DNA of 64,000 bases from Bacteroidia bacterium (GTDB taxonomy: Bacteria; Bacteroidota; Bacteroidia; NS11-12g; UBA955): assembly GCA_023653095.1 (NCBI GenBank), contig JAMNXP010000004.1:64772-128771 (forward strand), written 5' to 3'. A program made the position numbers and the translations under genes. Under the pieces are notes generated by a model, which had not been told where the DNA came from, did no database searches, and worked only from the letters and a program-made list of their open reading frames with translations. This document shows, piece by piece, positions 20,623 through 61,707 of the stretch (the stretch's first letter is position 1; each line of letters begins with the position of its first letter).

Positions 20623-20855
20623 ATCGGTGATCAGCCGTCAGCTCTCAGCTCTCACCTCTCAGCCGTCAGCCGTCAGCCGTCAGCTCTCAGCTCTCAGCTC
20701 TCAGCAACGCCAAAGGCGTAAAGCAACGCGAAGCGTTAGTCTCTAAGTCACAAAGTCTCCGGCGAAGCCGCTAGCCGTCATCCGTCAGCCAAAGACCAAT
20801 GACCAAAGACCAAGGACCAAAGACCAATGACCAAAGACCAAGGACCAAAGACCTA
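20623..20855. repeat. composite heptanucleotide tandem-repeat element, locus A
   Basis: 11 in-phase TCAGCNN units (20631-20707), then a core with three triloop hairpins (20707-20719, 20725-20737, 20760-20770), then 9 in-phase AARGACC units (20791-20853). Fills the whole gap between two convergent stop codons. Confidence 0.95.
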
Positions 20856-36199: not shown

Positions 36200-36255
36200 T
36201 TCATATTTAACACAGCAATAATAGCACCCTCAAAATTCCAGCGTTGATTTGAAGG

Positions 36256-36930: not shown

Positions 36931-36954
36931 GTGATTGACGAATACTGACAATCA

Positions 36955-39869: not shown

Positions 39870-39874
39870 TTTAA

Positions 39875-39908
39875 TTAAAAAAAGGAGGTGAAACAAGTTC
39901 ACCTCCTT
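39875..39908 (-). terminator. rho-independent terminator after susD-like gene
   Basis: The minus strand reads AAGGAGGTGAA-loop-TTCACCTCCTT followed by a T-run, about 30 nt after the SusD stop. Confidence 0.75.
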
Positions 39909-39936
39909 AACCAAACTTAACTATTCTAGAAAAACA

Positions 39937-41526: not shown

Positions 41527-41544
41527 GATTAATTATAATATGAA

Positions 41545-44619: not shown

Positions 44620-44799
44620 TTGGTTGAGTTTGTTTTTCAAATCAACCACCCCAATGTTACGATAAGCGACCTTAAATATTATCCAATAATAAACAACAAA
44701 AAATTAATATCGAACCCTATAATTTGAATTTATTAAATATAATTAATCATATATTTAATTATATATCAATATTTTAAGAATTTATATATAAAATTAAAA

Positions 44800-46869
44800 T
44801 TAAAATTGAATCATCAAATTAATACTCCTACCAGGCATCAAAACACCACTTCCATGTACCTTAACAATTTCATTACTTATATTTTGTACACCAGTAGCAA
44901 TTCGGACATTGTTAAGTAAAAATTCTAACCCAAAATCTAACTGAATAAAACCAGCCGTACCGTGTGTACCAATTCTATTGTCAGAGATATCTCCAGCTGC
45001 CAATCTTCTTTGAAAACTCGAAGCTAAATACCGAATAAAAATCCGGTTTTGTTGTTTTTTCCCGTAAAGGTAATTCATTTGAATCAACCCATTAATAGGT
45101 GGAATTCTTCGCATAGGCTCAACCTTTGTCAAATTGTCTCCTATGGCTTGCGAATAACCTGCTTTTATGTGCAAATTAGAACTAATGCTAATTTCCGTAT
45201 AACACTCAGCCCCTTGAATGATAGCCCTCTCAACGTTCTCTTTTTTATACACTTGATAGCCCTGAATTGAATCGGTTCCCACCTTTACCCGTGCAATTAC
45301 ATTGTATAGATAATTCTGATAAACTGAAAAATTGAACTTAATAAAATCAGAACTCCATTTTAATCCAATCTCGTGGTTGTTTGAATACTCAGGTTTCAAA
45401 TCAAATTGCGGAATTTCATACCTAAAATCAACAATGCCTAAGGTTCCCAAATCGTCAATATTAGGTGCCCTAAAACTTCCAGAGTAATTACCAAACAACC
45501 TCAATTTACTCAGCAAATTCGAGGAATTCCTTGAAATTGCCGATGATATACCTATTGTATGAACAAGAGCCCAATTACGATCTCTTATCAATCCAAGATC
45601 TTTTTCAGAAACTTCAGTTTGTGTTGATTGAAAGCGACTACCCAAAGTTATATCAACCCATTTAAAATCTCCTTTTGCCATCAAATAAACCCCTTGTTGC
45701 AACATCATTGAATTATCTGGGTATAAACCACGCTTCAATTCTTGAGCACCGGAAGAAACATTGGTTAAAATTCTTGACGAGCCCACCTTATCGTAGTATG
45801 CCTCATATCCTGAATTAATTAACCAGAATTTTCTAAATCGATGATTCAACTCCGTTAGAAAAAATCCGGTATTAACCTCGTCTTTTTCATTAGATGTTGT
45901 CAACGAAAGGTTTTTCCTTGCAGATCTTTCTTCCAAAGTATGTATAACACCCGTTGTGAACTTCAAATTAGTTCTATTACCCAATTCAAGGAACCTGCGA
46001 GCATAGGCCAAATTCCGAGCTTGAAGATCCATTTGGTTTACTTCGAAATTCTCTAAGGCCACTTTGTGATAAACAGGAACATTAAATTGTTGATTGCTTT
46101 GATAAGCAAACTCCCATTCTCCATTGGTGGCCTTTAAACGCAATTTTAAATCCCCGTTAAATTCCTCATACCCTGTGGGATTCTGACGACCCACATTTCC
46201 CCCACCAACAAGATCTCCAAAGTGCCTAAAAGTAATACCAGCGGTAACAGCAACTTTATTGCTTGCTGCGTCTAGGTATAGTCTTTGGGACCCTTCTATT
46301 GTTGGGGACATGAATCGTGTAATGCCGCCTACCTTAGTTACTTTAAATTTGCCAGGTTCAGAATTAGAGACCGAACTAGAGAATTCTGGCCTTCGATAAT
46401 AAACAACCAAAGCTCCACCTATAGCATCGCTCCCATATTGTACACTGCCTGTTCCCAGAGCAAGATCCACCTGTGAAATTGCAAAACCATCTAAGGTATT
46501 TAAATATTGATTAGGACCATATCTGAATGTACTGTTGTTCATTCGGATGCCATCCACAAGAGTAAGAATCTGATTTCCCGTTACACCTCTCAAATAAGGC
46601 GACCCACCTCCATGATTGGTTTTCTGAACTTGTATTCCCGGTATCTCGGCCAAAGATTCTGGCAAGGTCCTATGAAAAGTCCCTGTTACTGGTTTTTTTA
46701 AAGCATAACATGTAAATGACGACTTTTGCGCGCCTTCACCTGCTCTGAAAGCAACATGAACCGTATCAATTAACGAAGTCAGATCTTCAACATTATTAGC
46801 CGATTGCTGAGTTTGGGCCACCAATATCGAAGGCAGAAAAATAAATCCCAAGAAAAACCTAATGAACAT
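44800..46869 (-). CDS. TonB-dependent receptor
   Basis: Signal peptide, plug motifs (RGVTGNQILTLVDGIRMNN, GSDAIGGALVV) and C-terminal barrel ending in F. Confidence 0.85.
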   Translation of the reverse strand: MFIRFFLGFIFLPSILVAQTQQSANNVEDLTSLIDTVHVAFRAGEGAQKSSFTCYALKKPVTGTFHRTLPESLAEIPGIQVQKTNHGGGSPYLRGVTGNQILTLVDGIRMNNSTFRYGPNQYLNTLDGFAISQVDLALGTGSVQYGSDAIGGALVVYYRRPEFSSSVSNSEPGKFKVTKVGGITRFMSPTIEGSQRLYLDAASNKVAVTAGITFRHFGDLVGGGNVGRQNPTGYEEFNGDLKLRLKATNGEWEFAYQSNQQFNVPVYHKVALENFEVNQMDLQARNLAYARRFLELGNRTNLKFTTGVIHTLEERSARKNLSLTTSNEKDEVNTGFFLTELNHRFRKFWLINSGYEAYYDKVGSSRILTNVSSGAQELKRGLYPDNSMMLQQGVYLMAKGDFKWVDITLGSRFQSTQTEVSEKDLGLIRDRNWALVHTIGISSAISRNSSNLLSKLRLFGNYSGSFRAPNIDDLGTLGIVDFRYEIPQFDLKPEYSNNHEIGLKWSSDFIKFNFSVYQNYLYNVIARVKVGTDSIQGYQVYKKENVERAIIQGAECYTEISISSNLHIKAGYSQAIGDNLTKVEPMRRIPPINGLIQMNYLYGKKQQNRIFIRYLASSFQRRLAAGDISDNRIGTHGTAGFIQLDFGLEFLLNNVRIATGVQNISNEIVKVHGSGVLMPGRSINLMIQF

Positions 46870-46878
46870 CCGTTTAAA

Positions 46879-49329
46879 TTATTCTATAAATGCAGCTCTG
46901 CGTACCGCTGGAACTTCGCTTTTCTCTCCGCGAACGTATTTCCATAGTACCTCATTCATAATGAACTCATCTGCCTCATCTTCTCGGTCTAACTTCAAGA
47001 GATTGCTTCTATCCATCAGGTATGAAGTTGACTTTGGGTTGGTTTCTGAATTGAGTTCATTTAAGTTGATTCTAGCGGGTTCGGATTGAAATCCCCCGGA
47101 AATAAGAGTGTCAGAAAAACAACGCCACATAGAAACAGCTCCGGCATCGTATTGACTCATAGGCGGCATCCCCAAAATCAACTCCATCGTTCTTAACATA
47201 GACGAAGTAGTGTAATGTGTGTGATCTATGAACTTGCGTTTCACAAATCCTCCTGCGACATAAGCAGTAGAACGGTGGGCATCTACGTGATCAGGTCCAT
47301 TTTGAGCATCGTCTTCTAAAATAAATACCGCTGATTCATTCCAAATGGGTGATTTTGATAAATATTCAACGAATAGACCCACAGCTAAATCATTATCAGC
47401 CACATGCGCAAAAGGTGTAGGCCTACCCTTTCTTACACCTTCGGTATGATCATTGATGAATCGCAAAGTACTTAACTGAGGAACAGCATTAATGGCCAAC
47501 AAAGAATCAAAATCACGTTTCCACTGCCAAAATCTCAGACTGTCTTTGATCGATTCATCCCAAGAAGTAAAATACTTGCAAAAATGTCCTTCCAAAACGG
47601 GTATGTTTGGTTTGTAATCATCTGCAAATTCGCCATAAGTTCTATAGGAGATATTCGCTCTTTTAGCGTGATCCCAGATAAACCCTTTATGAGGGTGTGC
47701 AATTTTCCACTGTCCTTCGTAAACATATTCTCCGCCCTTACCACCATAACTCGTGGGCCAGGTTTTTTCGGTGTAGTCATTTGCAATGGCGCCAGTACTC
47801 CAATTGTGACCATCGGCACTTACCTCAGCATCTACATAAAAATTATCCAAAAGCACGAACTCGCGAGCAAGTTTATGTTGATTTGGAGTGATATCGTCCC
47901 CAAAAAGCAACAAACTTGTATCGCCATTTCCTCCTTCAATATCACTCAAAACTTGATCGTAGGTTCTATTCTCTTTTATGATATAAAATACATATTTGAT
48001 GGGTGATTGCTGCCCCAACACCGCTGGAATTGGATTTCCTTTAGGAATCAAGGAATCTGCATTTTCACGAGATTTCCGGTAAGGAATGTTCTCTATACAA
48101 AGGGTGGTACTTGAACGTAAATCTTCCGCCTCATCAATTTCATTTAAGGGTATAATTTGTAAACTGCCCCTGAAGAGTGAACCTATATACTGGACTGGCA
48201 AGGCCTTGATACCTCCTTGATAGGTTACCTGATTTCTTTTTGCTGTTGGATTTGGACCCTTGGGATTTGCAGCAGATGAAACCCCTTTTCCATTGGCAAC
48301 AAACAAACCAGCACCGGCTATATTCACTTGAGTTGGATACCAACCCGTTGGCAAAAAGCCTAAAATCTTAGTCTCAGACCGTTCCCTTACATCAAATACA
48401 GCCAGATTGTTGTTGTCTGCATTTGCTACATATAATCTCCCGTTATTCATACACAAACCATTGGGTGTTGAACCCGTAGGTGCATCGCGTTCAATGGCGG
48501 TATTCAAAATCTCAGAAACTCGACCTTCCTGACCATCATAAATATGCACACTATTATCATTACCACAAGCCACAAAAATCCGATCGGTCAATTGATCATA
48601 TATTAATTCATTGGGATTTGACCCAACTTTCACTCTTTTTGATATCTTCAATGTGGAGGGATTCACTAAAACCAAATTTTCAGATCCCCATTCTGTAAGT
48701 ACCAATTCAGAATTCTTGACAGAAATCGGTTTTCTTGAATCTCGAGGCTTCAACAAAATAGCATAACCCGCAGATTTTAATTTCGCACTAAGGAGTATTT
48801 TCTTAGATTTCAAATCAACGGCATAGATGGATGAATCTTCTTTGGTCACTGTGTACAAAACCTTTTCATCGGCACTTAAAACCATTCCAACAGGAGAAAT
48901 TCTTGTGGGCCAAGGTTTACCCAAAAAAAGAGTATCTATTCTTTCGAGTTTGCCGTTCGAAAATTCAAACTTTTCTATCCAATTATTATTACCGCCACTT
49001 ACAAACAAATGATTGCCCGCGTTATTAAAACACATTCCATAAAAGGTTTTATTTACAGGCATACTATCAACAACTTGGTGCGAAAGCGCATCTATAACCA
49101 TGATTGAATGATCACTTTGTCCGGCATTTTGCACTAAGATCCATTTCTGTGATGGATGCACCAACATCTTGAGCGGTAAATCTCCCACCCTCACTTGCTT
49201 TCCTATGGGCGACAAACTCCAACCGTTGGGTAGTTCTACTTTGGTTGGACGTAAATTCGTTTGACCCAAGAGCGATGACAACAACGACATCACAAACGTT
49301 AGGGCAAGGACTATTTTTGGATTTCTCAT
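46879..49329 (-). CDS. beta-propeller (YncE/YVTN-like) + phosphoesterase (PLC/AcpA family) fusion protein, paralog 1
   Basis: Signal peptide. N-terminal half has repeated propeller blades. C-terminal half begins YVFYIIKENRTYDQVL (phosphoesterase family signature) and carries DAHRS. Confidence 0.75.
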   Translation of the reverse strand: MRNPKIVLALTFVMSLLSSLLGQTNLRPTKVELPNGWSLSPIGKQVRVGDLPLKMLVHPSQKWILVQNAGQSDHSIMVIDALSHQVVDSMPVNKTFYGMCFNNAGNHLFVSGGNNNWIEKFEFSNGKLERIDTLFLGKPWPTRISPVGMVLSADEKVLYTVTKEDSSIYAVDLKSKKILLSAKLKSAGYAILLKPRDSRKPISVKNSELVLTEWGSENLVLVNPSTLKISKRVKVGSNPNELIYDQLTDRIFVACGNDNSVHIYDGQEGRVSEILNTAIERDAPTGSTPNGLCMNNGRLYVANADNNNLAVFDVRERSETKILGFLPTGWYPTQVNIAGAGLFVANGKGVSSAANPKGPNPTAKRNQVTYQGGIKALPVQYIGSLFRGSLQIIPLNEIDEAEDLRSSTTLCIENIPYRKSRENADSLIPKGNPIPAVLGQQSPIKYVFYIIKENRTYDQVLSDIEGGNGDTSLLLFGDDITPNQHKLAREFVLLDNFYVDAEVSADGHNWSTGAIANDYTEKTWPTSYGGKGGEYVYEGQWKIAHPHKGFIWDHAKRANISYRTYGEFADDYKPNIPVLEGHFCKYFTSWDESIKDSLRFWQWKRDFDSLLAINAVPQLSTLRFINDHTEGVRKGRPTPFAHVADNDLAVGLFVEYLSKSPIWNESAVFILEDDAQNGPDHVDAHRSTAYVAGGFVKRKFIDHTHYTTSSMLRTMELILGMPPMSQYDAGAVSMWRCFSDTLISGGFQSEPARINLNELNSETNPKSTSYLMDRSNLLKLDREDEADEFIMNEVLWKYVRGEKSEVPAVRRAAFIE

Positions 49330-49330
49330 T

Positions 49331-52141
49331 TTATTTTTGTATATTAATAAATCTTTCATCATCCATGGGTTCACTCATTTGAATTTCCCTCCAAGGTATG
49401 TTTCGGTTGTATTTTTTGATGGCTACATTTGGATCAAATATGCGGGTATCGCTCTTCTCCAAATGATAAGATGTAAAATCAGGTTTATCTGTAAAAAAGT
49501 CCCCCAATAAAGTAGAAGTTAGGTCAAACTGATTGACCGGATTGATACCCAAAAGGGTATACATGGTTTTCAATATAGACCCAAAGTTTGCATGAGTTTT
49601 TGATACATATCCTCTCTTTACATAAGGTCCTGCCATCATCAATATACTTCGATGTGCATCTATATGATCTACACCGCCCTGTGGGTCATCTTCAGTCACA
49701 ATGACCAACATATTTTTCCAATATGGAGTATTTGATAAAAACTGCAGCATCCTACCCAATGCCAAGTCATTGTCAGCAACATATGAATGCACAAATGGAT
49801 ATCCGTCTTGGGGCCTAGGACCTGTGGTATGATCATTGGGCAATTGAATGGTAATCACCTGCGGCATGGTGTCTTTTCCCGACAACCATTTCTCAGTAAA
49901 TTCCTCTTCAAATTGCTCTACCCTGAACTGATCAGGAATGTTCATATTGTAACCTGCATATTTTCTCGAAGTAGAAGGATAAATAGCCGAAGGCATGGGG
50001 TATGCAACAGGCATAGCCGTTCCATTCGCTGTGTCATACCACTCCTCTTGTACGTCAGTATACTCATTGGCTTCCCCGAAATTATATACCGATACATTAT
50101 GGCGCTTCAAAGCTTCCCAAAATCCACCTATCTCATTGTAATCTTCTGGATCCTGTGCACCAGTTGTTCTAGGGAAGATTCTTCCAGGTGCCGGAGAAAA
50201 TATCCTGTAAGAACCTGAATTCGCTGAATTGGTCTCAACATACTCATTGGGAATGGTGCCCATCATCCAATGGTGCCCATGAATTGAAGCGTCGCTGTCG
50301 CAATAAAAATTATCTGACAATGAAAAGGTAGTCGCAATTTTCTTGTGATTGGGAGTTATTCTCACTTTCTCAGCATTTAGTAAAGCCTTCAGCATCAAGG
50401 TATCTAAACCGTACTTCTTCAAAAGCAAATTGAATTCTTCCGCTTTGAGAGGATTATCACTCAATAAAGACAATTTTTCTAACACGTCTTTTCGAATTAC
50501 CTGCTCACAATCCACACCAAATCTGGCCAACGTAGAATCACCCTTAACTTGAGATAACTGACCAAAAACCTCATCAAAAGTTCTATTTTCCTTGGTTATG
50601 TAAACTACATGTGCAATGGGTGAATTTCCCTTTTTTAACCAATTAGCTGATTTAAGTTGATTACTATCTAATTCACTGGTTTTTTTAAACGTATTTCGGA
50701 GGCAAATCTCACTGCCTTCTTCCCATTGTGCTTGACTTGTTAGAGAAATTCTTTGCAACAAACCCAATTGTATGTCACCCACATAGGTTCCTTGTGCCGG
50801 AGCTTTGAATCCCATGCCACCATTAGGCCCTGCTCCATATCCCCTAGCAGAGGTCACCAATATTTGATTCTTAACTCCTAAATATTTCACTCTCGTAGCA
50901 CCCCAACCTGAAGGTAAAAAACCCAATACCTTTCTTGTATCAAGATTAATACAAGCCACTGCGTTGTATCCCAATAAAGCCACGAATAATTGTTTGTTTT
51001 TGCGATCTACATCTAATCCGTAGGGGAAGTATCCTCTAACACCATCCAAAACTGAACCCGTTTGGATCGATATATGTTCTATCACCTTACGCTTCTTGAG
51101 ATCAATCACGGCAATTTTATCGTTTTGAGTTAATGACACGTAAGCATAACCACCATAACATACCAAGGAACTAGGGTGAGACCCACCCACAATTTCAGCA
51201 TCTTCAACCATCTCCCCAATTCTATGACCGGTTTTGATTGTTTCAATCAAACTGTTTTTCTTGATATCTATCATAGAAACCGTCATCGATTCCATATTAT
51301 CTGCTGCACCGAGCCCCGGAATTTTACGGCCATTCACCCATACGCCAGTATCAGATTCTGAAGTATGAGCACCATAGGGCGGAAAATGCAAATAGGCACT
51401 ATCCTTGTTGGTTGGAGTCACCCCAGGAACAAGCGAATATTGATAGACCCCTACATTGGAAAACAACACGTATTTGCCATCTTCTGATATGGTCAACCCG
51501 AAAGGAATTCGGCCAGTTGGAAAGGACTTCAATAACTTTTTACTTTTCAATTTGATTCGATACACCGATTTCCAAGCTCTATCCAACACCCACAATTCAT
51601 TTCTTTTTGCATCAAGTGCTATATCGGTTATAAAAGCTTCTTTTGGTGTATCGGGATGAAAACTGCCAACATCAATAGAGTCAACTACTTTTTTCAATTC
51701 GCAATCAAAGAACCAAAGCATCCCTTTATCACCGCCTCCAATCACCGCCGTTTTATTGTCTGGTAAGAACTGAATTCCAATAAAGGTTGCATTTCTTACC
51801 ACATCCAAACCTGAACCATCAAACTCAGGGAAACGCTGAATATTCAAAGAATCTTTTGATAAATCTACTAAACTGATAGCGTTACTGTGAGCTATAATTG
51901 CCCAATGTTCATCTGCCGAAACGGCTAAACCGTAGGGAGCTCTTGTAATACTTTTACACTCTCCAGACGGAGAAACCCATCTACCTGATGGGAGTACTGA
52001 AATACCATTGGGATTTATCTCGCAATATTGATTCTTTCCGGGGACTTCAATACCATTTTGAGCCTCAATACCCTCATTGACCATAAAACAAGCCACCAAA
52101 AAACTAAAATTCCAAATCTTAAGAATCAGTCTAATTACCAT
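49331..52141 (-). CDS. beta-propeller + phosphoesterase fusion protein, paralog 2
   Basis: Same architecture as paralog 1 (VVYITKENRTFDEVF, VDHIDAHRS). Its stop lies 1 nt from the start of paralog 1. Confidence 0.75.
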   Translation of the reverse strand: MVIRLILKIWNFSFLVACFMVNEGIEAQNGIEVPGKNQYCEINPNGISVLPSGRWVSPSGECKSITRAPYGLAVSADEHWAIIAHSNAISLVDLSKDSLNIQRFPEFDGSGLDVVRNATFIGIQFLPDNKTAVIGGGDKGMLWFFDCELKKVVDSIDVGSFHPDTPKEAFITDIALDAKRNELWVLDRAWKSVYRIKLKSKKLLKSFPTGRIPFGLTISEDGKYVLFSNVGVYQYSLVPGVTPTNKDSAYLHFPPYGAHTSESDTGVWVNGRKIPGLGAADNMESMTVSMIDIKKNSLIETIKTGHRIGEMVEDAEIVGGSHPSSLVCYGGYAYVSLTQNDKIAVIDLKKRKVIEHISIQTGSVLDGVRGYFPYGLDVDRKNKQLFVALLGYNAVACINLDTRKVLGFLPSGWGATRVKYLGVKNQILVTSARGYGAGPNGGMGFKAPAQGTYVGDIQLGLLQRISLTSQAQWEEGSEICLRNTFKKTSELDSNQLKSANWLKKGNSPIAHVVYITKENRTFDEVFGQLSQVKGDSTLARFGVDCEQVIRKDVLEKLSLLSDNPLKAEEFNLLLKKYGLDTLMLKALLNAEKVRITPNHKKIATTFSLSDNFYCDSDASIHGHHWMMGTIPNEYVETNSANSGSYRIFSPAPGRIFPRTTGAQDPEDYNEIGGFWEALKRHNVSVYNFGEANEYTDVQEEWYDTANGTAMPVAYPMPSAIYPSTSRKYAGYNMNIPDQFRVEQFEEEFTEKWLSGKDTMPQVITIQLPNDHTTGPRPQDGYPFVHSYVADNDLALGRMLQFLSNTPYWKNMLVIVTEDDPQGGVDHIDAHRSILMMAGPYVKRGYVSKTHANFGSILKTMYTLLGINPVNQFDLTSTLLGDFFTDKPDFTSYHLEKSDTRIFDPNVAIKKYNRNIPWREIQMSEPMDDERFINIQK

Positions 52142-52287
52142 CTCTCAATAATCCGAATTGAATTAAAACTAGTTGTTTCGCTGATTATAAGTAATTGTTA
52201 GGTTAAATACCTGTAGTTAACATTCCACTAATAGAAAAAAGGTAAAATAACATATAGATTAAAGAAATAGTCCTATTTTCGCTCACT

Positions 52288-52962
52288 ATGAGAAAAATTC
52301 TATTTGGTTTGGCTCTGGCCATTGCGGGAACGACTGCGGCGCAGAATTACAATCCCAACTCAAAAAACACCCTTGAGGTCAATATCAACCTTCAAACAGG
52401 CACCAGCCCTATAAGCTTCGATGCTCCTAGCCTTCGCCTAAGAAGATTCATCAAAGACGATCTCGCTCTTAGAGCTTTGGTGGCCGTTTCCACATTCTCT
52501 AACACAGACCGTATTTATGATGCAGGCAATCGCGCCAATTTTGGCATCACCACACAGAACAACTGGAATTTCAACATTGGTGTGGGCGTAGAAAAACACA
52601 TAAAATCTACCGAAAAACTAAGCGCCTATATTGGTGGTCAAGTTATGTTCGCTACGGGTGGAGGATCATTTAAAGGAACCAACACCACCAACGGTTTCAA
52701 CTATGTCTCAGGAGGTGAATTTAAAAACTCTATTTCTGGGGGATTTGGATTCGGACTTATGGGCGTTTTTGGAGCAGACTACTATTTCACCAAAAACATC
52801 TACGTAGGAAGCGAAATCTCTTTCGGCTACACCTACCAATTCAACGGATATCAACTCAACTGGAATAATCAAACAAACACCGCCACCGAATCAAAACTCA
52901 CCACTTCCATGGGCCTCGGCATTGCCGTTAATCCAGGCGTGAGATTGGGTGTGAGGTTTTAG
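52288..52962 (+). CDS. outer-membrane beta-barrel (porin family) protein
   Basis: Signal peptide MRKILFGLALAIAGTTAAQ, Gly/aromatic strands, C-terminal RLGVRF. Confidence 0.7.
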   Translation: MRKILFGLALAIAGTTAAQNYNPNSKNTLEVNINLQTGTSPISFDAPSLRLRRFIKDDLALRALVAVSTFSNTDRIYDAGNRANFGITTQNNWNFNIGVGVEKHIKSTEKLSAYIGGQVMFATGGGSFKGTNTTNGFNYVSGGEFKNSISGGFGFGLMGVFGADYYFTKNIYVGSEISFGYTYQFNGYQLNWNNQTNTATESKLTTSMGLGIAVNPGVRLGVRF

Positions 52963-53207
52963 TCCTTGGTCCTTGGTCCTTGGTCCTTGGTCTTTGGTCG
53001 TTGGCTAACAGCTTTCAGCTGTCAGCGGGCAGCTATCAGCCGACAGCCGACAGCCGACAGCCGACAGCCGACAGCCGACAGCCGACAGCCGACAGCCGAC
53101 AGCCGACAGCCGACAGCCGACAGCCGACCACCGACCACCGACCACCGACCACCGACCACCGACCACCGACCACCGACCACCGAACACCGAACACCGATCA
53201 CCGGCTA
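52963..53207. repeat. composite heptanucleotide tandem-repeat element, locus B
   Basis: In order: TCCTTGG x4, then 2 variants, then CAGCNNN x4, then 12 perfect CCGACAG (53040-53123), 8 perfect CCGACCA (53124-53179), CCGAACA x2, CCGATCA and CCGGCTA. Phase is unbroken over 53009-53207. Spans stop to stop between convergent genes. Confidence 0.95.
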
Positions 53208-54212
53208 CCTCACAACTATTCCCCACTCCACAAAATCGGGTTCGTCAAAGATGAATTTGCGGCGAAAATGGGTTTTAAAACGGGTGCGCAACTCTACATG
53301 TTGTGACAATCGGTAATCTAAACCTAAGCCTTGATAAAACATGGGTTTGGTAGAGGTTATTGGGCGTAAAACGTAAAAGCCAATATCTGTTCGAAGAGCT
53401 ATTCGGCCCATCAATATGAGGTTTCCTGCTCGAAGGGTGACTTCTGAGTTTTGAGGATATTTGAGCTCTGTGGGTTGACCGTTTGATTTGTAAAAGTAGG
53501 TTGGATCCGTGATCCATTCCAAACCTACATCCCAAGCCCGACGATTGGTTTTTTGGAACCGATAGGCAGCGTCAAGATTCCAAATTAAGTGAGTGCGATT
53601 GTAAAGCAGGCTGTGTTGTCTAAGGCCGAGTTTTAGCCCCACGCTGAAGGGATAGGCAAAAAACTTCCGCTTCACTCTATATATAGGTTGGATTTTTCGT
53701 GATTTGGGCGAGAACACCAAACCAGCGAAGCCCATTCCTTGATTGAAATTGAGGCTTGGGAACCTACTATTGGCCGAATTAATGTTGAACAAACGGTAGC
53801 CCGCTTGAATGGCCAACGAAGACGAAATTCCGAGTTTGAAACCGGCTTCGGCTTCCGTTCTGATAGACGATTTTGTAGCAAATCCGTAGCTCAATTGTCC
53901 ATAAACGCCAAAAAGATCTGCGAATGCATAGGTGACACCAAAACGGGGAGAGATGTGTGCCACGGGAATCGGAGTTAATAAGTTCATATAGGTTCCGTAA
54001 CCCAATTCTACACCGAGGTAGGGTGTTAGAAATCGTTTTTTCTTCTTGGAAAATCCTTGTTGTCTTTCGAGGAAAGCTTCCCAATCGGCTCCCAATTTTA
54101 TAGCTGCAGAATTACCAGATGCAGCAGCTAGATTGATAAATAGGTCACGTTGTGAATCTAGGCGTAAAAACGTCCCCAGAATGAAAAAAAGTAGAGCAAA
54201 AAAAGGCTTCAT
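53205..54212 (-). CDS. outer-membrane beta-barrel-like hypothetical protein, last gene of XrtF operon
   Basis: Signal peptide. ATGA overlap with the upstream gene. Beta-strand patterning. No catalytic motif recognised. Confidence 0.55.
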   Translation of the reverse strand: MKPFFALLFFILGTFLRLDSQRDLFINLAAASGNSAAIKLGADWEAFLERQQGFSKKKKRFLTPYLGVELGYGTYMNLLTPIPVAHISPRFGVTYAFADLFGVYGQLSYGFATKSSIRTEAEAGFKLGISSSLAIQAGYRLFNINSANSRFPSLNFNQGMGFAGLVFSPKSRKIQPIYRVKRKFFAYPFSVGLKLGLRQHSLLYNRTHLIWNLDAAYRFQKTNRRAWDVGLEWITDPTYFYKSNGQPTELKYPQNSEVTLRAGNLILMGRIALRTDIGFYVLRPITSTKPMFYQGLGLDYRLSQHVELRTRFKTHFRRKFIFDEPDFVEWGIVVR

Positions 54213-55620: not shown

Positions 55621-55657
55621 GTTAAACTAACAAATGTTAGTGGGTTTGGTTTTTATT

Positions 55658-55950
55658 TCAGCCATCAGTAGTCAGCTGTCAGCACTCAGCACTCAGCGGT
55701 CGGCGGTCAGCTTTCAGCGATCAGCGGGCAGCGGTCAGCGGTCTGCGGTCAGCGATCAGCACTCAGCACTCAGCACTCAGCCGTCAGCCGTCAGCGGTCT
55801 GCGGTCAGCTTTCAGCGGTGGCTATGCCGAAAAGCTGCACCGAAGGTGCCAAGCAACGCAAAGGGCAAGTCCTAGCGAAGCGTGAGTCCCATAGTCACAG
55901 ACAAAGCCATCAGCCAAGGACCAAGGACCAAAGACTAAAAACTAAGGTCT
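55658..55950. repeat. composite heptanucleotide tandem-repeat element, locus C
   Basis: 23 in-phase TCAGCNN units (55658-55818), a core with GCACC-GAA-GGTGC (55837-55849) and GCGAAGC (55875-55881) hairpins, then AAGGACC-type units (55916-55950) running into the stop codon of the next gene. Confidence 0.95.
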
Positions 55951-56613
55951 CATGACCGACATCAGTTTCAACTGCTCTCTAGCGATGTCGTTCCAGCGGT
56001 GCTCATCTGGGGTGGCGTGCCACCATAAATCGATCATATGTCCCTCGTAAAAAACGATGTATCTGCGCCCTGTGATGACGGTTTTCTTGACGAGTTTGAG
56101 CATTTCATTGTTGTAGATTTCACATTTGACGGTGTAACTCAACGCGGGCCGACCCCAAAGACTGTCGCATTCCAAAAAGCCAAGTTCTACATTTTTATAG
56201 GCATTCTGGAGGGCCGCCATGTGCTTGGCTTGACTGTCAGCGCCAAACTTGAAAACAATATTGGAAATAGTGTCGTTCTTGATATCTTTCAGGAACTGCG
56301 CATGAGTGGCATCACTCCAGGTGCGAGGAACGGGAAAGTAAATGCGCATTTCGAAGTGTGTTGCTTGCGCATCAAAATCATTGACGCCTTTGCTTTTGTG
56401 CTTGAAGAAAAACCCACGCGGATTCACCTGATTGACTGTTTGGATGTGCGGATGCACCGATTTCATCTGCAACAGGGGAGCTGGAGTTTCAACTTGCGCT
56501 TTACTCTTGCTTGGGGATTCTTCTGCAGGTGGCAATTTCCCGTACTGTGCCCATGCTAAATTAGTCAACATAAAAAAAGCCGCCAAGAATCTCAGAGATT
56601 TCATTGGCGGCAA
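55942..56613 (-). CDS. secreted hypothetical protein
   Basis: Signal peptide MKSLRFLAAFFMLTNLAWAQ. No recognised domain. Confidence 0.55.
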   Translation of the reverse strand: MPPMKSLRFLAAFFMLTNLAWAQYGKLPPAEESPSKSKAQVETPAPLLQMKSVHPHIQTVNQVNPRGFFFKHKSKGVNDFDAQATHFEMRIYFPVPRTWSDATHAQFLKDIKNDTISNIVFKFGADSQAKHMAALQNAYKNVELGFLECDSLWGRPALSYTVKCEIYNNEMLKLVKKTVITGRRYIVFYEGHMIDLWWHATPDEHRWNDIAREQLKLMSVMRP

Positions 56614-56629
56614 AGATAATGTACTACTA

Positions 56630-56783
56630 TCAGCTTTCAGCGGACAGCCGTCAGCGGTCAGCCTTCAGCGGTCAGCTTTCAGCGGTCAGTCGTCAGCGAT
56701 CAGCCGTCAGCCGTCAGCCATCAGCTGAAAGCTGATAGCCCTCTAAACTCTTAACTCTAAACTCTTAACTCTCCCCTCTACTC
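56630..56783. repeat. composite heptanucleotide tandem-repeat element, locus D
   Basis: 14 in-phase TCAGCNN units (56630-56727), a 7-bp-stem hairpin ATCAGCT-GAA-AGCTGAT (56720-56736), then six TCTNNNC units (56742-56783: TCTAAAC TCTTAAC TCTAAAC TCTTAAC TCTCCCC TCTACTC). Confidence 0.95.
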
Positions 56784-57137
56784 CCCCCTGGTCAGACTCA
56801 CATATCCATGCCTCGTCCACTGACTCATGATCTCGCACTCTGCCGGCGTGAGGCTCAGCGTTTCAGTTAGTTCACCAGTAATTCCGTTAGCGAAGATGGT
56901 GCCAATGGTATCAATCTCCCATCGAAGCATGAGCCGGTCCCAATGAAGACTTCCTTCGCACACCAACACCCCCGATGGGCGATAAAAATGTGCAATGATA
57001 ACCTCCTCACCTCCGCCCTCTCCGCCATTATTTCGGTCCTTTGGCGGACGCGTCCCTCCACCACCTCTGTCTTTTTCGGGGGATGTTTTTTCGGGGGATG
57101 TTTTGACGGCGATTGTTTCTAAGGTGGACATTGGCAT
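56778..57137 (-). CDS. orphan hypothetical protein, GC-rich relative to surroundings
   Basis: 119-aa ORF with a low-complexity Gly/charged N-terminus, including a 15-nt perfect tandem duplication (57075-57104, KTSPE x2). Coding status unproven. Confidence 0.4.
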   Translation of the reverse strand: MPMSTLETIAVKTSPEKTSPEKDRGGGGTRPPKDRNNGGEGGGEEVIIAHFYRPSGVLVCEGSLHWDRLMLRWEIDTIGTIFANGITGELTETLSLTPAECEIMSQWTRHGYVSLTRGE

Positions 57138-57198
57138 CCAAAATTACAATGGAAAACTTCAAATCATATAATGTTTATTTTCAATTATTTAAACTTCG

Positions 57199-57254
57199 AT
57201 TTTACATGTTTAGAATATTTCACTTTACATATTTGGAGTTTTCTACTTTACAAT
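57199..57254. repeat. three phased copies of a CTTTACA-type motif (23-nt period)
   Basis: TTTACA cores at 57201, 57224 and 57247 (ATTTTACATG, CACTTTACAT, TACTTTACAA), in the AT-rich spacer between the orphan ORF start and the endonuclease stop. Confidence 0.6.
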
Positions 57255-57294
57255 TTTTTAGAGAGTCTTATTGGTACATTTTGATTGATGATAA

Positions 57295-58371
57295 TTACAT
57301 AAATCTTATTTGAAGATTCAATTTGAAATAAAAATTCCCGTTTTCCTGATAGATTTTTCCAAAGTTGTATCTTGAAGTACTGGGTGTTTCAAGACGGGAA
57401 TTATTAAATAGGTAATTTTCAAACTCATTTTTGTGGTAAATATGATAACAAAGAACGTCACCTGTTTCTTTTACAACTAAATAACCGCCGTTTGCCTGAT
57501 AGTTGCCGTCCCACACCTTACTTGGGGTCATTCCCAACGCGACATCAGTTAAAAACTTCTTCATTTTATACGCATAGAATGAATGAGAATACCTGTTGTC
57601 GTATCCCAATGGATTACTAATGGCTATTTTCTCACAGATCTCTACAAGGTTCTTGTTATTGTATTTATATCCAAATATCAATAATTCCGCAATGATGTCG
57701 GGCAACCTACTATCAATCAAAATTAAATTATTTTCAAAAATTGGCTCTTCAATTCTGACAAATTCTAGGTAACCACCAACTTGATAAATTTGATTAACTC
57801 GATCAACAACTTTTGATTTCGTTTCGATAAAATTTATATCAAATAAATTATTCAGATCTTGAATATTATGACAAACTTTAAAAATAAAATTAGTTCCATT
57901 TCCTGCATTCAACAATGTAGATTCACTACCTAATTTTGATTTTATACTAAATCCAAGATCAACATTTGACGATACATGTTGATCATAGACAACAATTCGT
58001 ATATCAGTCTTTGAGGTAGATTTTGCTTTCAGCGAATTACAATAAATTGAATCTAAAAATGATTGGATTTCGGGCAATATAAAGGCCCCATTTTCCTTCT
58101 TTATTGCGGCAAGCAATTTTCCAGCTTGTTCTGAAAATACGGCTACATTTATTTTTAATGGTGCTTTTTCATTTCCAGAAATCAAAACAATCTCTCCATC
58201 TATTTCATACTCAAAATTTCCACCACTCTCCTCCCTAATAATCTTAATAATTGGATAAAAAATTTCTTCTACTCTATTTAAATTACCATCACCCAATAAC
58301 AATTCACCATCACCCAATAACTTTAAAAGTGTATAAATTTCACTCCATTCACCTTTGTTTCCCTTTAGCAT
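57295..58371 (-). CDS. HpaII family type II restriction endonuclease
   Basis: 358 aa. The N-terminus MLKGNKGEWSEIYTLLKLLGDGEL matches the characteristic start of the HpaII REase family. ATG overlaps the methyltransferase stop (ATGCTAA). Confidence 0.75.
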   Translation of the reverse strand: MLKGNKGEWSEIYTLLKLLGDGELLLGDGNLNRVEEIFYPIIKIIREESGGNFEYEIDGEIVLISGNEKAPLKINVAVFSEQAGKLLAAIKKENGAFILPEIQSFLDSIYCNSLKAKSTSKTDIRIVVYDQHVSSNVDLGFSIKSKLGSESTLLNAGNGTNFIFKVCHNIQDLNNLFDINFIETKSKVVDRVNQIYQVGGYLEFVRIEEPIFENNLILIDSRLPDIIAELLIFGYKYNNKNLVEICEKIAISNPLGYDNRYSHSFYAYKMKKFLTDVALGMTPSKVWDGNYQANGGYLVVKETGDVLCYHIYHKNEFENYLFNNSRLETPSTSRYNFGKIYQENGNFYFKLNLQIRFM

Positions 58372-59672
58372 AATTCTAACTTTCTTAAAATTTCAAAAGC
58401 CGTTGCTCGAATTGCTGGAACTGCGACAGAATTACCAAATTGTTTATACGCACTTGCATCAGAAACAGGTATAATAAAATTATCAGGAAAACCTTGAAGT
58501 CTAGCCCATTCACGAGGAGTCATTTTTCTGATACCTAATTTATTTACTTCTCCTTTGATTTTTGTTGTTGGAGTAAAGTCAGTAATTCGATCATCTACAA
58601 CCAAATTCCTTTCTCTTCCCATTCCGCCGCATACAACAGCATTCGCCACCTCCAGATCACCTATAATCTGATATCCAAATCCATTTCCTTTCTCCTCATG
58701 CCGCTTCTTATGATTTTCTAATGTCCATAAATATTGCGTTGACAAGTAATACCTAGTATCAACTGGCTTCGATTCCCTTATATCTATAAAGCTCAACCGA
58801 TCTGAATATGGTTCTGGGTAACGAAAAAATTCATCCTTAATATAATTCTTGTGAAAAGCAACGATATAAATTCTTTCTCTGTTTTGAGGAACTCCATAAT
58901 CCCTAGCATTTATTATTTGAGGATCGGGAACATAATAATTCAAATCCTCTCTGAGTACATTCAAAATAGTCGCCAAGGTCTTACCCTTATCATGATTTCT
59001 TAATCCCTTGACATTTTCCAGAAAAACTGCTTTGGGTCTTTTTCTTCTAATGATTTCAGCAACATCAAAAAATAAAGTCCCTCTAGTATCTTCGAACCCT
59101 CCTCTTCGCCCAGCAATAGAAAATGCTTGACAGGGAAAACCTGCACATAAAACATCAAAATCATCAGGAATTTCTGATTTATTTGCTTCATCGGTTATAT
59201 CACCAAATGGAATATCTCCGAAATTATTGAAATAGGTTTTTTGAGCGTCAGTATCCCATTCACTTGAATATACACAATCTCCGCCCAATGATTGAAGTGC
59301 CAACCTAAAACCACCAATTCCGGCAAATAAATCAATAAATCTGAATTTAGGTTGTAAATCTTTTTGAAAAGGTAAATTTCGCAAAACGCATTGTAATTCA
59401 AAATAAAAATCCACTATGTTTAACTGAGGTTTAATTTGAGATAAAAGAATAATATCATTTTGAATGTCTCTACTTAGTTGTTCAAAAGATAAATTAATTT
59501 TCCTTCCGATAACATGAGTTATCCTCGCCAATTTCTGATTGATTACTTCTTTATCATTTGCAAATATTTTATTAGTCTTATTCGAAAACAAATCGTTTGC
59601 AGTCAACAGAATATTGCAACCATTTTCATATTCCACTAATTTGTCCCGAACAACATGCTTCTTTTGACCCAT
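58365..59672 (-). CDS. DNA (cytosine-5)-methyltransferase with roughly 100-aa N-terminal extension
   Basis: Motif I FRFIDLFAGIGGF, IV GFPCQAFS, VI ENVKGL, VIII QNRERIYIV, X QFGNSVAVP. ATG at 59672; an alternative TTG at 59705. Confidence 0.95.
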   Translation of the reverse strand: MGQKKHVVRDKLVEYENGCNILLTANDLFSNKTNKIFANDKEVINQKLARITHVIGRKINLSFEQLSRDIQNDIILLSQIKPQLNIVDFYFELQCVLRNLPFQKDLQPKFRFIDLFAGIGGFRLALQSLGGDCVYSSEWDTDAQKTYFNNFGDIPFGDITDEANKSEIPDDFDVLCAGFPCQAFSIAGRRGGFEDTRGTLFFDVAEIIRRKRPKAVFLENVKGLRNHDKGKTLATILNVLREDLNYYVPDPQIINARDYGVPQNRERIYIVAFHKNYIKDEFFRYPEPYSDRLSFIDIRESKPVDTRYYLSTQYLWTLENHKKRHEEKGNGFGYQIIGDLEVANAVVCGGMGRERNLVVDDRITDFTPTTKIKGEVNKLGIRKMTPREWARLQGFPDNFIIPVSDASAYKQFGNSVAVPAIRATAFEILRKLELC

Positions 59673-59795
59673 ATAATTTTCTATTACAAATACTTGATTG
59701 TTCAAAAATAAGAGGTCATTTCTTTAAAACTATGGTAAACAAACATAAATAAATCCATTTGTTTTGCACTTTATACAACTACATCACCAACTAGC

Positions 59796-60794
59796 ATGTC
59801 ACTCTCTTACCTGCAGCTCAGAGAATACCTCGAAAGGCAAATGAAGATGAGCCACATCTATCAGCCAGTAATGATAAGAAGGTTGCTGTTAGATGGGGGT
59901 GTTTCGGAGGACAAATCTATTGCCGCTGACCTCTCTGCAAAAGATCCTAGCCAAATTGACTATTACACAGAGCGCGTCAATAACATGGTGGGGAAAGTTC
60001 TACGAAAAAATGGAGTTGTAACTAAAGAGAAAAATCTATACCTACTTGAAAAAGTTACCGAATTATCATCCCAAGAAATCAATGAATTGGTAGAACTTTG
60101 CGATAACAAGATCAATCAATACCTAGAAAAGCGAAACCTCGACATTTGGGAGCATCGCAACCGCACCCGCAGACCCATTTCTGGAGATGTTATTCATCAG
60201 GTATTGGAACGCGCAAAAGGCCGATGCGAACTTTGTGGCATCAAAAAGGAAATTAAACACTTGGAAGTTGATCATATTGTTCCCAAAAGTTTGGGTGGCG
60301 TTGACTCCATCCACAATTACCAAGCACTTTGTTACAGCTGCAACTCCCGAAAAGGCAACCGCTACTCCACTGACTACCGCACACTTGGTCAAATCTTCGA
60401 AGAACGACAACATTATTGTTTATTCTGTGGGACATCAAACGCCGAATTTTCCTCCCGCATTATACATTCTAACCATCTTGCTGTTTGTATTGAAGATGCT
60501 TTTCCGGTTACCGACGGACATAGCCTTATTATCCCTAAAAGGCATTTTGCCAACTACTACAATATAGAATCGGCCGAACTCAGCGCCACACATGAACTAA
60601 TAAAGTTGAGACAAAAAGAACTCATTAAAAAAGACTCAAGCATCACAGGTTTCAACATGGGTATAAACCAAGGAATTGACGCAGGACAAACCATTTTTCA
60701 TTGTCACATTCACCTCATTCCACGCCGCCAAAACGACGTTCCAGCACCCCGCGGAGGCGTCAGAAATATCATTCCAAATAAAGGAAACTATTGA
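59796..60794 (+). CDS. three-part fusion: helical (winged-helix-like) N-domain + HNH nuclease + HIT-family hydrolase
   Basis: HNH/zinc motif CELCG...EVDHIVPKSLGG...NYQALCYSCNSRKGN. HIT domain LIIPKRH...GFNMGINQGIDAGQTIFHCHIHLIPR. N-terminal 125 aa unassigned (SHIYQPVMIRRLLLDGG). Confidence 0.85.
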   Translation: MSLSYLQLREYLERQMKMSHIYQPVMIRRLLLDGGVSEDKSIAADLSAKDPSQIDYYTERVNNMVGKVLRKNGVVTKEKNLYLLEKVTELSSQEINELVELCDNKINQYLEKRNLDIWEHRNRTRRPISGDVIHQVLERAKGRCELCGIKKEIKHLEVDHIVPKSLGGVDSIHNYQALCYSCNSRKGNRYSTDYRTLGQIFEERQHYCLFCGTSNAEFSSRIIHSNHLAVCIEDAFPVTDGHSLIIPKRHFANYYNIESAELSATHELIKLRQKELIKKDSSITGFNMGINQGIDAGQTIFHCHIHLIPRRQNDVPAPRGGVRNIIPNKGNY

Positions 60795-60835
60795 AAATAC
60801 ACATCTATTTAATATACAATCATTTAACTAGGTCG

Positions 60836-60893
60836 TTTGTAACAAAGCGAACCCAATTTCTTCCATTTTTTGTAACAAAGCGAACCCAATTTC
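60836..60893. repeat. 25-bp perfect direct repeat, two copies, 33-bp period
   Basis: TTTGTAACAAAGCGAACCCAATTTC at 60836-60860 and 60869-60893, separated by 8 nt. Each copy contains the palindrome TTGTAACAA. Confidence 0.9.
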
Positions 60894-60996
60894 GGTGATC
60901 GGTGATCATTCGTCAGTGGTCAGCTCTAAACTCTGAATTCTAAACTCGCTGCTCTCCCCTCCCATCCAAAGACCAAGGACTAAAACCCTAAAACCT
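60894..60996. repeat. composite heptanucleotide tandem-repeat element, locus E (short)
   Basis: CGGTGAT x2, then CGTCAGTGGTCAGC, six TCTNNNC units (60925-60966: TCTAAAC TCTGAAT TCTAAAC TCGCTGC TCTCCCC TCCCATC), then AAAGACC AAGGACT AAAACCC TAAAACC running into the stop and C-terminus of the next gene. Confidence 0.9.
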
Positions 60997-61570
60997 CATA
61001 AGCCACTTCGTTGCGCCTATTGACCACATCCCAAGGCGCATTGTAACCCATGTAAAGAAGGGAACCCTTGGTGAAAATGTTGTTTTCTTGGAGCACACGT
61101 TTGAGTTCTTGGGCGTATTTGGAGATTTTTTCTTCGGAAGTGAATCCCCCGAAACGCAAAACTGCCAAGGTCATGGGGTTTTGAGCCACCAACGATACCG
61201 CGCTAGAATTGGGCGCTGGAAGATCTGACATTTGATATTGACTGGGCATGACGAACGACATTGACGCGTCAGAGTCAGAGATATTCATAATAACGGGAGA
61301 GGTCATGGCAATCTTTTGTTGCTGTTGGTTTCCGCCGAAAATGTAGCCCGCTACCGTGCTAAATCCGTTGTTACCATTCGAATCATAACGCTTTCCACCG
61401 AGTTTGGTTTGGGCCAAAATCAAGTTGGGATACTGCCTAATTTCTACCTCCCCTAGGGTTTTAACAATTTGATATTTAGGCGTTTCGATGTCTTTAAATT
61501 TAAAAGAGTAAAACAACAAAACGGCTCCCACAATCACGATGGGCACGGCAATCCAAACGACGATTTTCAT
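60980..61570 (-). CDS. SOUL heme-binding family protein with N-terminal membrane anchor
   Basis: After the TM helix: ETPKYQIVKTLGEVEIRQYP...FSTVAGYIFGGN...MTSPV...GYNAPW, the SOUL/HBP pattern. Start at ATG 61570; the longer ORF overlaps the tRNA. Confidence 0.75.
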   Translation of the reverse strand: MKIVVWIAVPIVIVGAVLLFYSFKFKDIETPKYQIVKTLGEVEIRQYPNLILAQTKLGGKRYDSNGNNGFSTVAGYIFGGNQQQQKIAMTSPVIMNISDSDASMSFVMPSQYQMSDLPAPNSSAVSLVAQNPMTLAVLRFGGFTSEEKISKYAQELKRVLQENNIFTKGSLLYMGYNAPWDVVNRRNEVAYEVLGF

Positions 61571-61607
61571 TGATAATGAAACAATTAAAGTCGAGAAAGG
61601 TTCAAAT

Positions 61608-61630: not shown

Positions 61631-61634
61631 ATAG

Positions 61635-61707
61635 TGGTATCGGGCGGAATCGAACCGTCGACACAAGGATTTTCAGTCCTTTGCTCTACCAACTGAGCTA
61701 CGATACC
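61635..61707 (-). tRNA. tRNA-Phe (anticodon GAA)
   Basis: Reverse complement: GGTATCGTAGCTCAGTTGGTAGAGCAAAGGACTGAAAATCCTTGTGTCGACGGTTCGATTCCGCCCGATACCA. Perfect 7-bp acceptor stem, D-loop AGTTGGTA, anticodon loop CTGAAAA, T-loop TTCGATT. One A-C mismatch in the T stem. CCA not encoded. Confidence 0.95.

Follow-up and report, generated by a model that had tools for sequence, protein, structure and literature searches.

Heptamer arrays D and E and a restriction-modification islet downstream of tRNA-Phe in a freshwater Bacteroidia genome

We analysed a stretch of 64,000 nucleotides (64 kb, referred to here as the window) from the genome of a Bacteroidia bacterium (GenBank assembly GCA_023653095.1, contig JAMNXP010000004.1, positions 64,772 to 128,771), in which two arrays of tandem 7-nt units, here called D and E, lie on either side of a small "orphan" gene, a restriction-modification (R-M) gene pair and a gene for a fusion of HNH endonuclease and HIT domains. 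An earlier note on this DNA had interpreted these genes as a cassette that was inserted into, or captured by recombination between, the two arrays. Our analysis makes it likely that D and E belong to a genome-wide family of heptamer spacers, and that the R-M islet occupies a separate slot of a hotspot next to the tRNA-Phe gene. All comparators were metagenome contigs, to which we refer by L numbers. The closest relatives of the locus were freshwater Bacteroidota metagenome-assembled genomes (MAGs), and the SOUL protein encoded in the window corresponds to NCBI MCL9980837.1 from a Bacteroidia bacterium MAG. The features on which the argument turns are the following.

55942-56613, minus strand: left223 gene, lineage-specific with two homologue clusters only; left border of the variable interval
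56627-56785, plus strand: array D, with a TCAGCNN block (56630-56727), the transition TGAAAGCTGATAGCCC and a TCTAAAC-type block (56742-56783)
56778-57137, minus strand: orphan gene, 119 aa, adjoining the SOUL gene in all close relatives; outside the islet
57233-60871, no strand: defence islet of 3,639 nt with a guanine-cytosine (GC) content of 34.8%, containing the genes for an R.HpaII-like endonuclease (R), a C5 methyltransferase (M) and the HNH-HIT protein; missing from L096
60837-60893, plus strand: 24-nt motif TTGTAACAAAGCGAACCCAATTTC in two copies (60837-60860 and 60870-60893), at the right islet edge
60892-60996, plus strand: array E, with a TCGGTGA/TCAG block (60892-60924), a TCTAAAC-type block (60925-60966) and a CAAAGAC/CTAAAACC block (60967-60996)
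60980-61570, minus strand: SOUL haem-binding protein gene, the ancestral neighbour of tRNA-Phe
61634-61707, minus strand: tRNA-Phe(GAA) gene; the hypervariable interval starts 29 nt downstream

The match between D and E is real and not due to chance within the window sequence. Their TCTAAAC-type blocks, TCTAAACTCTTAACTCTAAACTCTTAACTCTCCCCTCTACTC in D (56742-56783) and TCTAAACTCTGAATTCTAAACTCGCTGCTCTCCCCTCCCATC in E (60925-60966), are located in phase on the same strand and agree at 33 of 42 positions, with 7, 5, 7, 3, 7 and 4 matches per heptamer, so that both the count and the coordinates given in the earlier note were exact. When either block was slid along both strands of the window, the other was the unique top match, and the next-best match outside the arrays reached 25 of 42 positions, phase-shifted self and cross matches aside. 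The 10-mer TCTAAACTCT occurred 3 times in the window, always within D or E, compared to an expectation of 0.17, and the TCTAAAC block was found in D and E alone within the 64 kb. Units of the TCAGC type precede both blocks, as had also been described: about 14 TCAGCNN units in D (56630-56727), and 2 copies of TCGGTGA followed by TCATTCG, TCAGTGG and TCAGC in E (60892-60924). The likeness ends at the borders of the blocks, beyond which the flanks could not be aligned.

Array D occupies the spacer from the orphan stop codon to the start of left223 and has orthologues in L217, L218 and L220, which also contain orthologues of array E, as does L096. In L220, the orthologues of D and E share a 25-nt signature, CTGAAAGCCGTCAGCCCTCTAAAC, with 43 of 51 positions matching. 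Since this signature is non-periodic, D and E are best regarded as true paralogues and not as convergent simple sequence; judged from their sequences, a single composite element is present here in two directly oriented paralogous copies. It was also noted that the terminal codons of both adjoining genes are encoded by array sequence. The CAAAGAC/CTAAAACC block of E overlaps the last codons of the SOUL gene (60980-60996), which end in ..VLGF* in the window and in ..QPLAE* in the relatives, and the orphan gene (56778-56795) ends in ..LTRGE* where its relatives end in ..KTLS*. At both genes, the 3′ end has been overwritten by an array.

Arrays with periods of 7, 14 or 21 nt and up to 21 copies were identified at 5 loci of the window by Tandem Repeats Finder, and an autocorrelation scan at period 7 agreed. 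Composite heptamer arrays fill at least 5 intergenic spacers in the window, the remaining 3 loci being as follows.

20620-20860, plus strand: array A, with TCGGTGA/TCAGCNN units, a central module and CAAAGAC/CAATGAC units, extending from stop codon to stop codon between convergent genes
52944-53214, no strand: array B, with GTCCTTG, CAGCCGA and CCACCGA units, in the stop-to-stop spacer of two convergent genes
55656-55956, plus strand: array C, with a TCAGCNN block, a non-periodic GCGAAGC-rich module and a CAAGGAC block, between left223 and the SRPBCC gene

The order of the units recurs, with TCGGTGA followed by TCAGCNN, then by a block of the TCTAAAC type or, in its place, a non-periodic central module, and then by CAAAGAC/CAAGGAC. 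D and E are therefore members of a family and not a pair, because TCAGCNN and CAAAGAC blocks are common to the 5 window arrays and other pairs outscore D-E: the local alignment scores with D were 98 for C, 84 for B, 68 for A and 46 for E. A similar composite running from TCAGC to TCTAAAC was found at an unlinked locus in L096. Furthermore, a metagenome scan for exact matches to TCTAAACTCTNAAYTCTAAAC identified at least 120 contigs with TCTAAAC arrays from highly diverse samples. The earlier note had set its reading against the possibility that D and E are no more alike than other members of the family, and this is largely what we found. Among the matches listed, 34 of 120 unrelated TCTAAAC contigs matched D at 33 or more of the 42 positions, with a maximum of 37; E was matched at that level by one of the 120, also among the matches listed.

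The same spacers hold different units in different genomes. In a sister species, the spacers orthologous to B and C contain the units GGTACCN, CCCGATA, GGGGTTC and CCGAAAC (for example L089 9762-9984 and 13213-13363, among the arrays of L083 to L095), whereas the window group has TCAGCNN, TCGGTGA, TCTAAAC and CAAAGAC, which are reused across many loci of one genome. Family-level relatives contain no arrays at the corresponding spacers; in L030 and L023, the order from tRNA-Phe to the SOUL, SRPBCC and OMP genes is kept with short, repeat-free spacers. Genome-specific units at orthologous spacers imply rapid turnover and homogenisation within genomes.

A few structural details of the arrays were recorded in addition. 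The non-periodic central modules of A (20706-20788) and C (55822-55902) are rich in mini-hairpin motifs of the GCGAAGC type. In their orthologues of array C, L218 (16500-16600) and L087 (1-60) have the segment AAGTCCTAGCGAAGCGTGAGTC in the opposite orientation to the window, with the flanking heptamer blocks unflipped, and the central module is absent from L217.

An explanation of the arrays as functional cis-elements, such as terminator-like spacers in 3′ untranslated regions, insulators, or binding platforms for proteins or RNA, would make D and E alike by function and their bracketing of the cassette incidental. The arrays do span exactly the distance from stop to stop or from stop to the next start, and they are kept at the orthologous spacers of the sister species in spite of their different sequences; moreover, TAACTGA heptamers have been suggested to act in translation or regulation (PMC4679880). 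We nevertheless hold this explanation to be rather improbable, given that the unit sequences at one and the same spacer are not conserved between species and that the family-level relatives do without arrays there. No terminator-like or promoter sites were predicted within the arrays, and an Rfam scan of the window returned the tRNA-Phe gene as its sole match, with none in the arrays.

The boundaries of the R-M islet were set by local alignments of both flanks to L096, a contig of about 89% identity in which the tRNA-Phe gene is followed by the SOUL gene, an E-type array (E′), 39 nt and an orphan homologue, and in which the R-M genes are absent. Window positions 57007-57232 and 60872-60924 align to the abutting L096 segments 8241-8013 and 8011-7959, and the islet was accordingly defined as 57233-60871, since the L096 flanks join seamlessly at window 57232 and 60872. 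The left end is located in unique, AT-rich, non-repeat DNA upstream of the orphan gene, and the right end in the duplicated TTGTAACAAAGCGAACCCAATTTC motif, directly ahead of the first E heptamer and 53 nt short of the block of six TCTAAAC-type units. The slot thus has TTGTAACAAAGCGAACCCAATTTC, beside array E, on one side and the promoter region of the orphan gene on the other. Both edges bear local tandem duplications, on the left a 23-nt unit in 2.5 copies (57201-57256) and on the right TTGTAACAAAGCGAACCCAATTTC, the copy number of which is 1 in L096, 2 in the window and 3 in L217 and L220.

At the islet ends 57233 and 60871 we found no matching direct or inverted repeats and no target-site duplication, and the closest inverted pair nearby has one arm in resident DNA. 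There was accordingly no sign, at these ends, of the terminal inverted repeats or target-site duplications of a transposon, miniature inverted-repeat transposable element or site-specific island. A Pfam domain scan of the 19 open reading frames (ORFs) between 36.2 and 61.7 kb, the part of the window that it covered, detected no integrase, transposase or other recombinase domain, which bears out the earlier statement that no integrase or transposase is present and leaves the locus, within these ORFs, without the integrase of a tRNA-associated island. Nor was a tRNA 3′-end repeat seen among the direct-repeat families at 56600-61020, a stretch that ends before the tRNA gene itself.

Other relatives carry different cargo in the same slot. 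In L217 (88% to 94% identity), E with a five-heptamer TCTAAAC block is followed by a decayed islet and then by the orphan gene. This islet lacks window positions 57556-60029 through an internal deletion that took away the greater part of R and the whole of M; at its junction the BLAST segments overlap by 5 nt, and the remnant of its HNH-HIT gene is interrupted by a stop codon. In L218 (about 93%), the slot contains an AAA_23/zeta-like gene, an ORF of 97 aa, a 943-aa PLD-DEAD-helicase-DUF3427 gene and a NUDIX gene, after which come the orphan gene and a single D array with 4 TCTAAAC units. The order in L220 and L221, the SOUL proteins of which are 94% to 96% identical to that of the window, is SOUL, NERD, E, AAA_14/DUF4143, helicase, NUDIX and orphan. 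In L218, L220 and L221, the slot edges are again non-array sequence, on the right at TTGTAACAAAGCGAACCCAATTTC and on the left about 75 to 85 nt nearer to the orphan start than in L096.

We also noted that 81 nt around the promoter and first codons of the HNH-HIT gene (59772-59854) are kept at 86% to 92% identity in the otherwise unrelated helicase/NUDIX islands of L218 (11885-11965), L220 (6046-6125) and L221. This remnant suggests a mosaic replacement of cargo within the slot.

These comparisons bear directly on the idea that the orphan, R-M and HNH-HIT genes form one cassette with D and E as its attL/attR-like ends. In its favour, D and E are direct, in phase and the only TCTAAAC blocks of the window, the interval between them is of mixed composition, and their L220 orthologues share the non-periodic signature mentioned above. 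However, the limits of the cassette are not at D and E, because the L096 indel ends fall outside both array D and the TCTAAAC block of E, unrelated cargo in L218, L220 and L221 occupies the same non-array slot, and the loss in L217 is an internal deletion. The orphan gene cannot be counted as a cassette member either, having homologues elsewhere and being retained in L096 beside the SOUL gene and E′ without R-M genes, and array D is likewise resident. An empty site of the kind that the earlier note had called for, with a single array between the SOUL gene and left223, was not seen among the relatives compared, and no product of recombination between D and E was found in any of them. With a resident orphan gene and array D, no D × E allele, internal loss of the R-M genes, and neither terminal repeats at the true islet ends nor a recombinase in the ORFs scanned, the view that D and E bracket and explain the cassette is unsupported, and we regard it as highly improbable.

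Bracketing by similar arrays was also observed in contigs unrelated to the window, where pairs of arrays in direct orientation are spaced 3 to 4 kb apart. In L159, near-identical composite arrays (1822-2257 and 5614-5983) enclose genes for Fic/Bro-N, NTP_transf_5 and LPD3 proteins. In L160, arrays that are 89% identical over 63 nt (3572-3634 and 6768-6830) enclose leuA and an aconitase-family, leuC-like gene. Because near-identical arrays also bracket housekeeping leuA/leuC genes, bracketing alone is to be expected of arrays that fill spacers.

The earlier suggestion that the repeats act as a scaffold for recombination finds no support in the R-M islet but receives indirect support from locus D. 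Three states of this locus were identified, namely a single array in the window and L218, an array followed by hicAB and a TCTAAAC module in L217, and an array, a DsrE-family gene and a second array in L220. In L217, the orphan gene is followed by hicA (PF07927, 6e-17) and an HTH antitoxin-like gene between two TCTAAAC modules, and then by left223 and the SRPBCC gene. The DsrE-family gene in L220, also located past the orphan gene, has a D-type composite array on either side, and these two copies agree at 60 of 65 positions and have non-periodic sequence in common. The contrast between a single copy and flanking copies, for which the earlier note had proposed a search, is thus seen in these sequences, but for other cassettes.

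From such states it might be argued that the arrays are dedicated, attC-like sites at cassette junctions that serve a recombinase acting in trans, each gene group bringing its own array. Besides the duplicated arrays around hicAB and DsrE, this would fit with katG arriving with an array at the same junction in the sister species, with the arrays that abut or overwrite the 3′ ends of the SOUL and orphan genes, with the one chromosomal orientation shared by A, C, D and E, and with the location of 4 of the 5 window arrays in the 8-kb hotspot. As in an integron, small unrelated genes, including a toxin-antitoxin pair, are separated by repeats of one orientation, and there is polymorphism between single and flanking copies. 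The repeats differ from those of integrons in being tandem heptamers without the imperfect palindrome of attC sites; the only inverted pairing was weak (75%) and lay inside the TCAGC/GCTGA block of D. They do not keep one orientation with respect to the gene before them, the sense of DsrE being opposite to that of the other genes, and arrays are also present at the syntenic, non-variable spacers of B and C and around core genes such as the leu genes of the unrelated contig. Neither the integrase IntI nor another recombinase was found among the 19 ORFs scanned (36.2 to 61.7 kb), and no heptamer blocks mark the borders of the largest indels, namely a 16-kb island and the R-M islet. Taken together, we find a role of this kind improbable.

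The 16-kb island (36209-52287) is missing from L083, L089, L094 and L218, in which window position 36208 joins approximately 52271-52288, and no heptamer arrays were found at its edges. It contains genes for HAD_2, DUF5690, an FAD oxidoreductase, an HD protein, a SusD-like protein, two TonB/Plug receptors and two large phosphoesterase-family proteins, and looks like an accessory island similar to a polysaccharide utilization locus (PUL), with a putative function in phosphorus or phosphonate scavenging.

The interval downstream of the tRNA-Phe gene varies well beyond the islet. In the sister species, at about 80% nucleotide identity, the following interval is replaced.

56623-61604, no strand: replaced interval, for which the sister species has either 51 nt or katG and a heptamer array

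Both states have the same breakpoints, at window 61604/5 and 56619-22. In L085, L094 and L095, the tRNA-Phe gene is followed by 51 nt and left222, and the same junction is present in the shortened contigs L083 and L084. In L089 to L091, katG comes next to the tRNA-Phe gene, and a composite array of 223 nt separates it from left222. At least 7 allelic states of the interval were counted among the related populations. With gene content that differs between shared breakpoints in the 51-nt, katG and window states, the interval from tRNA-Phe to the SRPBCC gene can be classified from these comparisons as a hotspot, which in the relatives is empty or contains decayed or unrelated defence cargo. Hotspots for defence and accessory genes are flanked by conserved genes and are often located beside tRNA genes. 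The present one resembles them in its alternating R-M, helicase/PLD, NUDIX, NERD, AAA and toxin-antitoxin cargo beside tRNA-Phe and in an islet without integrase; it differs in that the spacers are filled with heptamer arrays and that duplicated arrays lie on both sides of small cassettes (hicAB and DsrE).

The genes of the islet itself are as follows.

57295-58371, minus strand: HpaII-family type II restriction endonuclease gene (Pfam RE_HpaII PF09561, 9e-132, positions 1-359 of 359; PADLOC REase_II)
58365-59705, minus strand: C5 cytosine DNA methyltransferase gene (Pfam DNA_methylase PF00145, 1.6e-98; PADLOC MTase_II)
59796-60794, plus strand: HNH endonuclease and HIT fusion gene (Pfam HNH 3.2e-13, HIT 4.9e-18), divergent from M

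An RE_HpaII endonuclease next to a C5 methyltransferase identifies a type II R-M system of the HpaII family. It resembles HpaII-type systems in the full-length RE_HpaII match, the adjacent methyltransferase, the overlap of the R and M genes (7 nt) and the depletion of CCGG, the predicted recognition sequence, and it differs in its linkage to the divergent HNH-HIT gene. Of the 16 palindromic tetramers, CCGG was the most depleted in the window, with 77 occurrences against 131 expected (observed/expected ratio 0.59); the ratio for GATC was 0.65. This depletion would fit a lineage that has long been exposed to HpaII-type restriction. An exact-protein look-up of the window genes matched one 5.8-kb Logan contig, and thus revealed no second copy of the intact cassette. 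The N-terminal part of the HNH-HIT protein, about 130 aa, is without a domain match, and its similarities in PADLOC, to ThsC (HIT) and PtuB (HNH), are weak.

The earlier note had stated that exactly the compositionally odd genes are located between D and E. This applies to the orphan, R and M genes, with GC contents of 53%, 31% and 34%, but not to the HNH-HIT gene, for which 42% is ordinary in a window that averages 40%. No Pfam match was obtained for the orphan and left223 proteins. Homologues of the orphan protein were identified at 77%, 41% and 37% identity, and it belongs to a conserved family of small proteins, its gene being resident at this locus.

Arrays of heptamers are known from several other prokaryotes. 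Cyanobacterial short tandemly repeated repetitive (STRR) sequences are the classical example, and were reportedly described by Mazel et al. in 1990. Among the long simple sequence repeats (LSSRs) of prokaryotes, arrays of 7-nt units form the most common class (Mrazek et al. 2007, summarised in PMC4679880). TAACTGA and accompanying heptamer direct repeats have been reported from Beggiatoaceae, cyanobacteria and five Bacteroidetes (MacGregor 2015, PMC4679880). In some Bacteroidetes the arrays are intergenic and are absent from relatives in which the gene neighbourhood is the same; one of these arrays adjoins a probably transferred ORF (PMC4679880).

The window arrays consist of head-to-tail 7-nt units beyond chance and are intergenic at multiple loci with shared unit types. 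They resemble LSSRs and STRRs as composite, multi-unit tandem heptamers in the intergenic regions of many loci, with a fast turnover of length and sequence and without known function. They differ in their units (TCAGCNN, TCGGTGA, TCTAAAC and CAAAGAC, not CCCCAGT, TTGGTCA and CAACAGT), in their freshwater Bacteroidia host, in the recurrent order of their blocks and in the non-periodic central module of some arrays. An assignment to cyanobacterial STRRs in the strict sense was rejected because of the Bacteroidia host and flanking genes and the non-canonical units. With the arrays of MacGregor (2015) they share the intergenic location in Bacteroidetes, the array-free close relatives and a case beside a putatively acquired ORF, but the arrays described here follow stop codons, whereas the TAACTGA arrays are located just upstream of start codons. 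Tandem TAACTGA units (with up to 2 mismatches) did not exceed the chance expectation in the sequence searched. By sequence, the arrays at this locus belong to a kind of heptamer array that has already been described, here in an uncultured lineage. The literature searched on heptamer arrays and cassette exchange contained no paper that links the two.

On the reading of D and E as spacer-family members and of the islet as cargo of a separate slot, the arrays would lengthen and shorten by replication slippage at the 7-nt period, and gene conversion between loci would homogenise them. Such conversion between arrays would explain both the genome-specific units and the TCTAAAC/TCTCCCC block that is common to D and E. 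As near-identical direct repeats of 25 to 70 nt, the arrays may also occasionally serve as substrates of unequal homologous recombination, which could account for the array-flanked hicAB and DsrE genes at locus D. The islet most likely entered by illegitimate recombination; it may then have spread or been replaced through homologous recombination in the conserved SOUL and orphan flanks, and would decay by microhomology-mediated deletions that take R and M together. A joint deletion of most of R and all of M would be the only safe route by which an addictive R-M pair can be lost.

Several points weigh against this reading. Slippage, gene conversion and RecA-dependent exchange are steps that we infer, and the comparator contigs are mostly short-read assemblies, which are prone to break at heptamer arrays. 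The source genome was seen for 64 kb, and the frequency of the TCTAAAC block is that within those 64 kb. The hicAB and DsrE states are each known from one contig, although a de Bruijn mis-join is unlikely in these contigs, because the longest run of identical bases common to the flanking copies is below 31. A well-formed TCTAAAC block is present at E in the window, L217, L218 and L220, all of which have cargo in the slot, whereas L096, the sole contig with an empty slot, has a degenerate and differently placed block. Finally, the window, L217 and L096 are roughly equidistant (SOUL 88% to 90%), so that insertion of the islet cannot be polarised against deletion. An interpretation of the TCTAAAC block of E as a clean 42-nt insertion relative to L096, which has TCAGC|CAAAGAC, was considered and then weakened, since in L096 a degenerate TCT-type block is present beyond the CAAAGAC units and the order differs.

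In a more far-reaching model, the arrays would be working recombination substrates of a cassette platform without integrase, kept uniform by conversion or by "array-writing". Single genes and small defence or toxin-antitoxin modules would then be inserted, duplicated and deleted at the array junctions downstream of tRNA-Phe. We consider this model possible but unlikely. If true, it would provide the first function for the long-unexplained STRR-like heptamer repeats of Bacteroidota and cyanobacteria.

For the present, the results mean that the D/E pair is no marker of an R-M cassette and that the cassette is located in an ordinary defence hotspot. Surveys based on MAGs miss such loci, as short-read assemblies fragment precisely at heptamer arrays. 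The locus provides a compact natural experiment, with at least 7 states in lake populations, arrays at most junctions and two array-flanked cassettes. In cyanobacteria, heptanucleotide arrays have been on record since 1990, with a few Bacteroidetes added later, and no function has found acceptance; should the association of arrays with cassettes hold across the genome, simple-sequence arrays would be connected with the flux of genes through defence hotspots.

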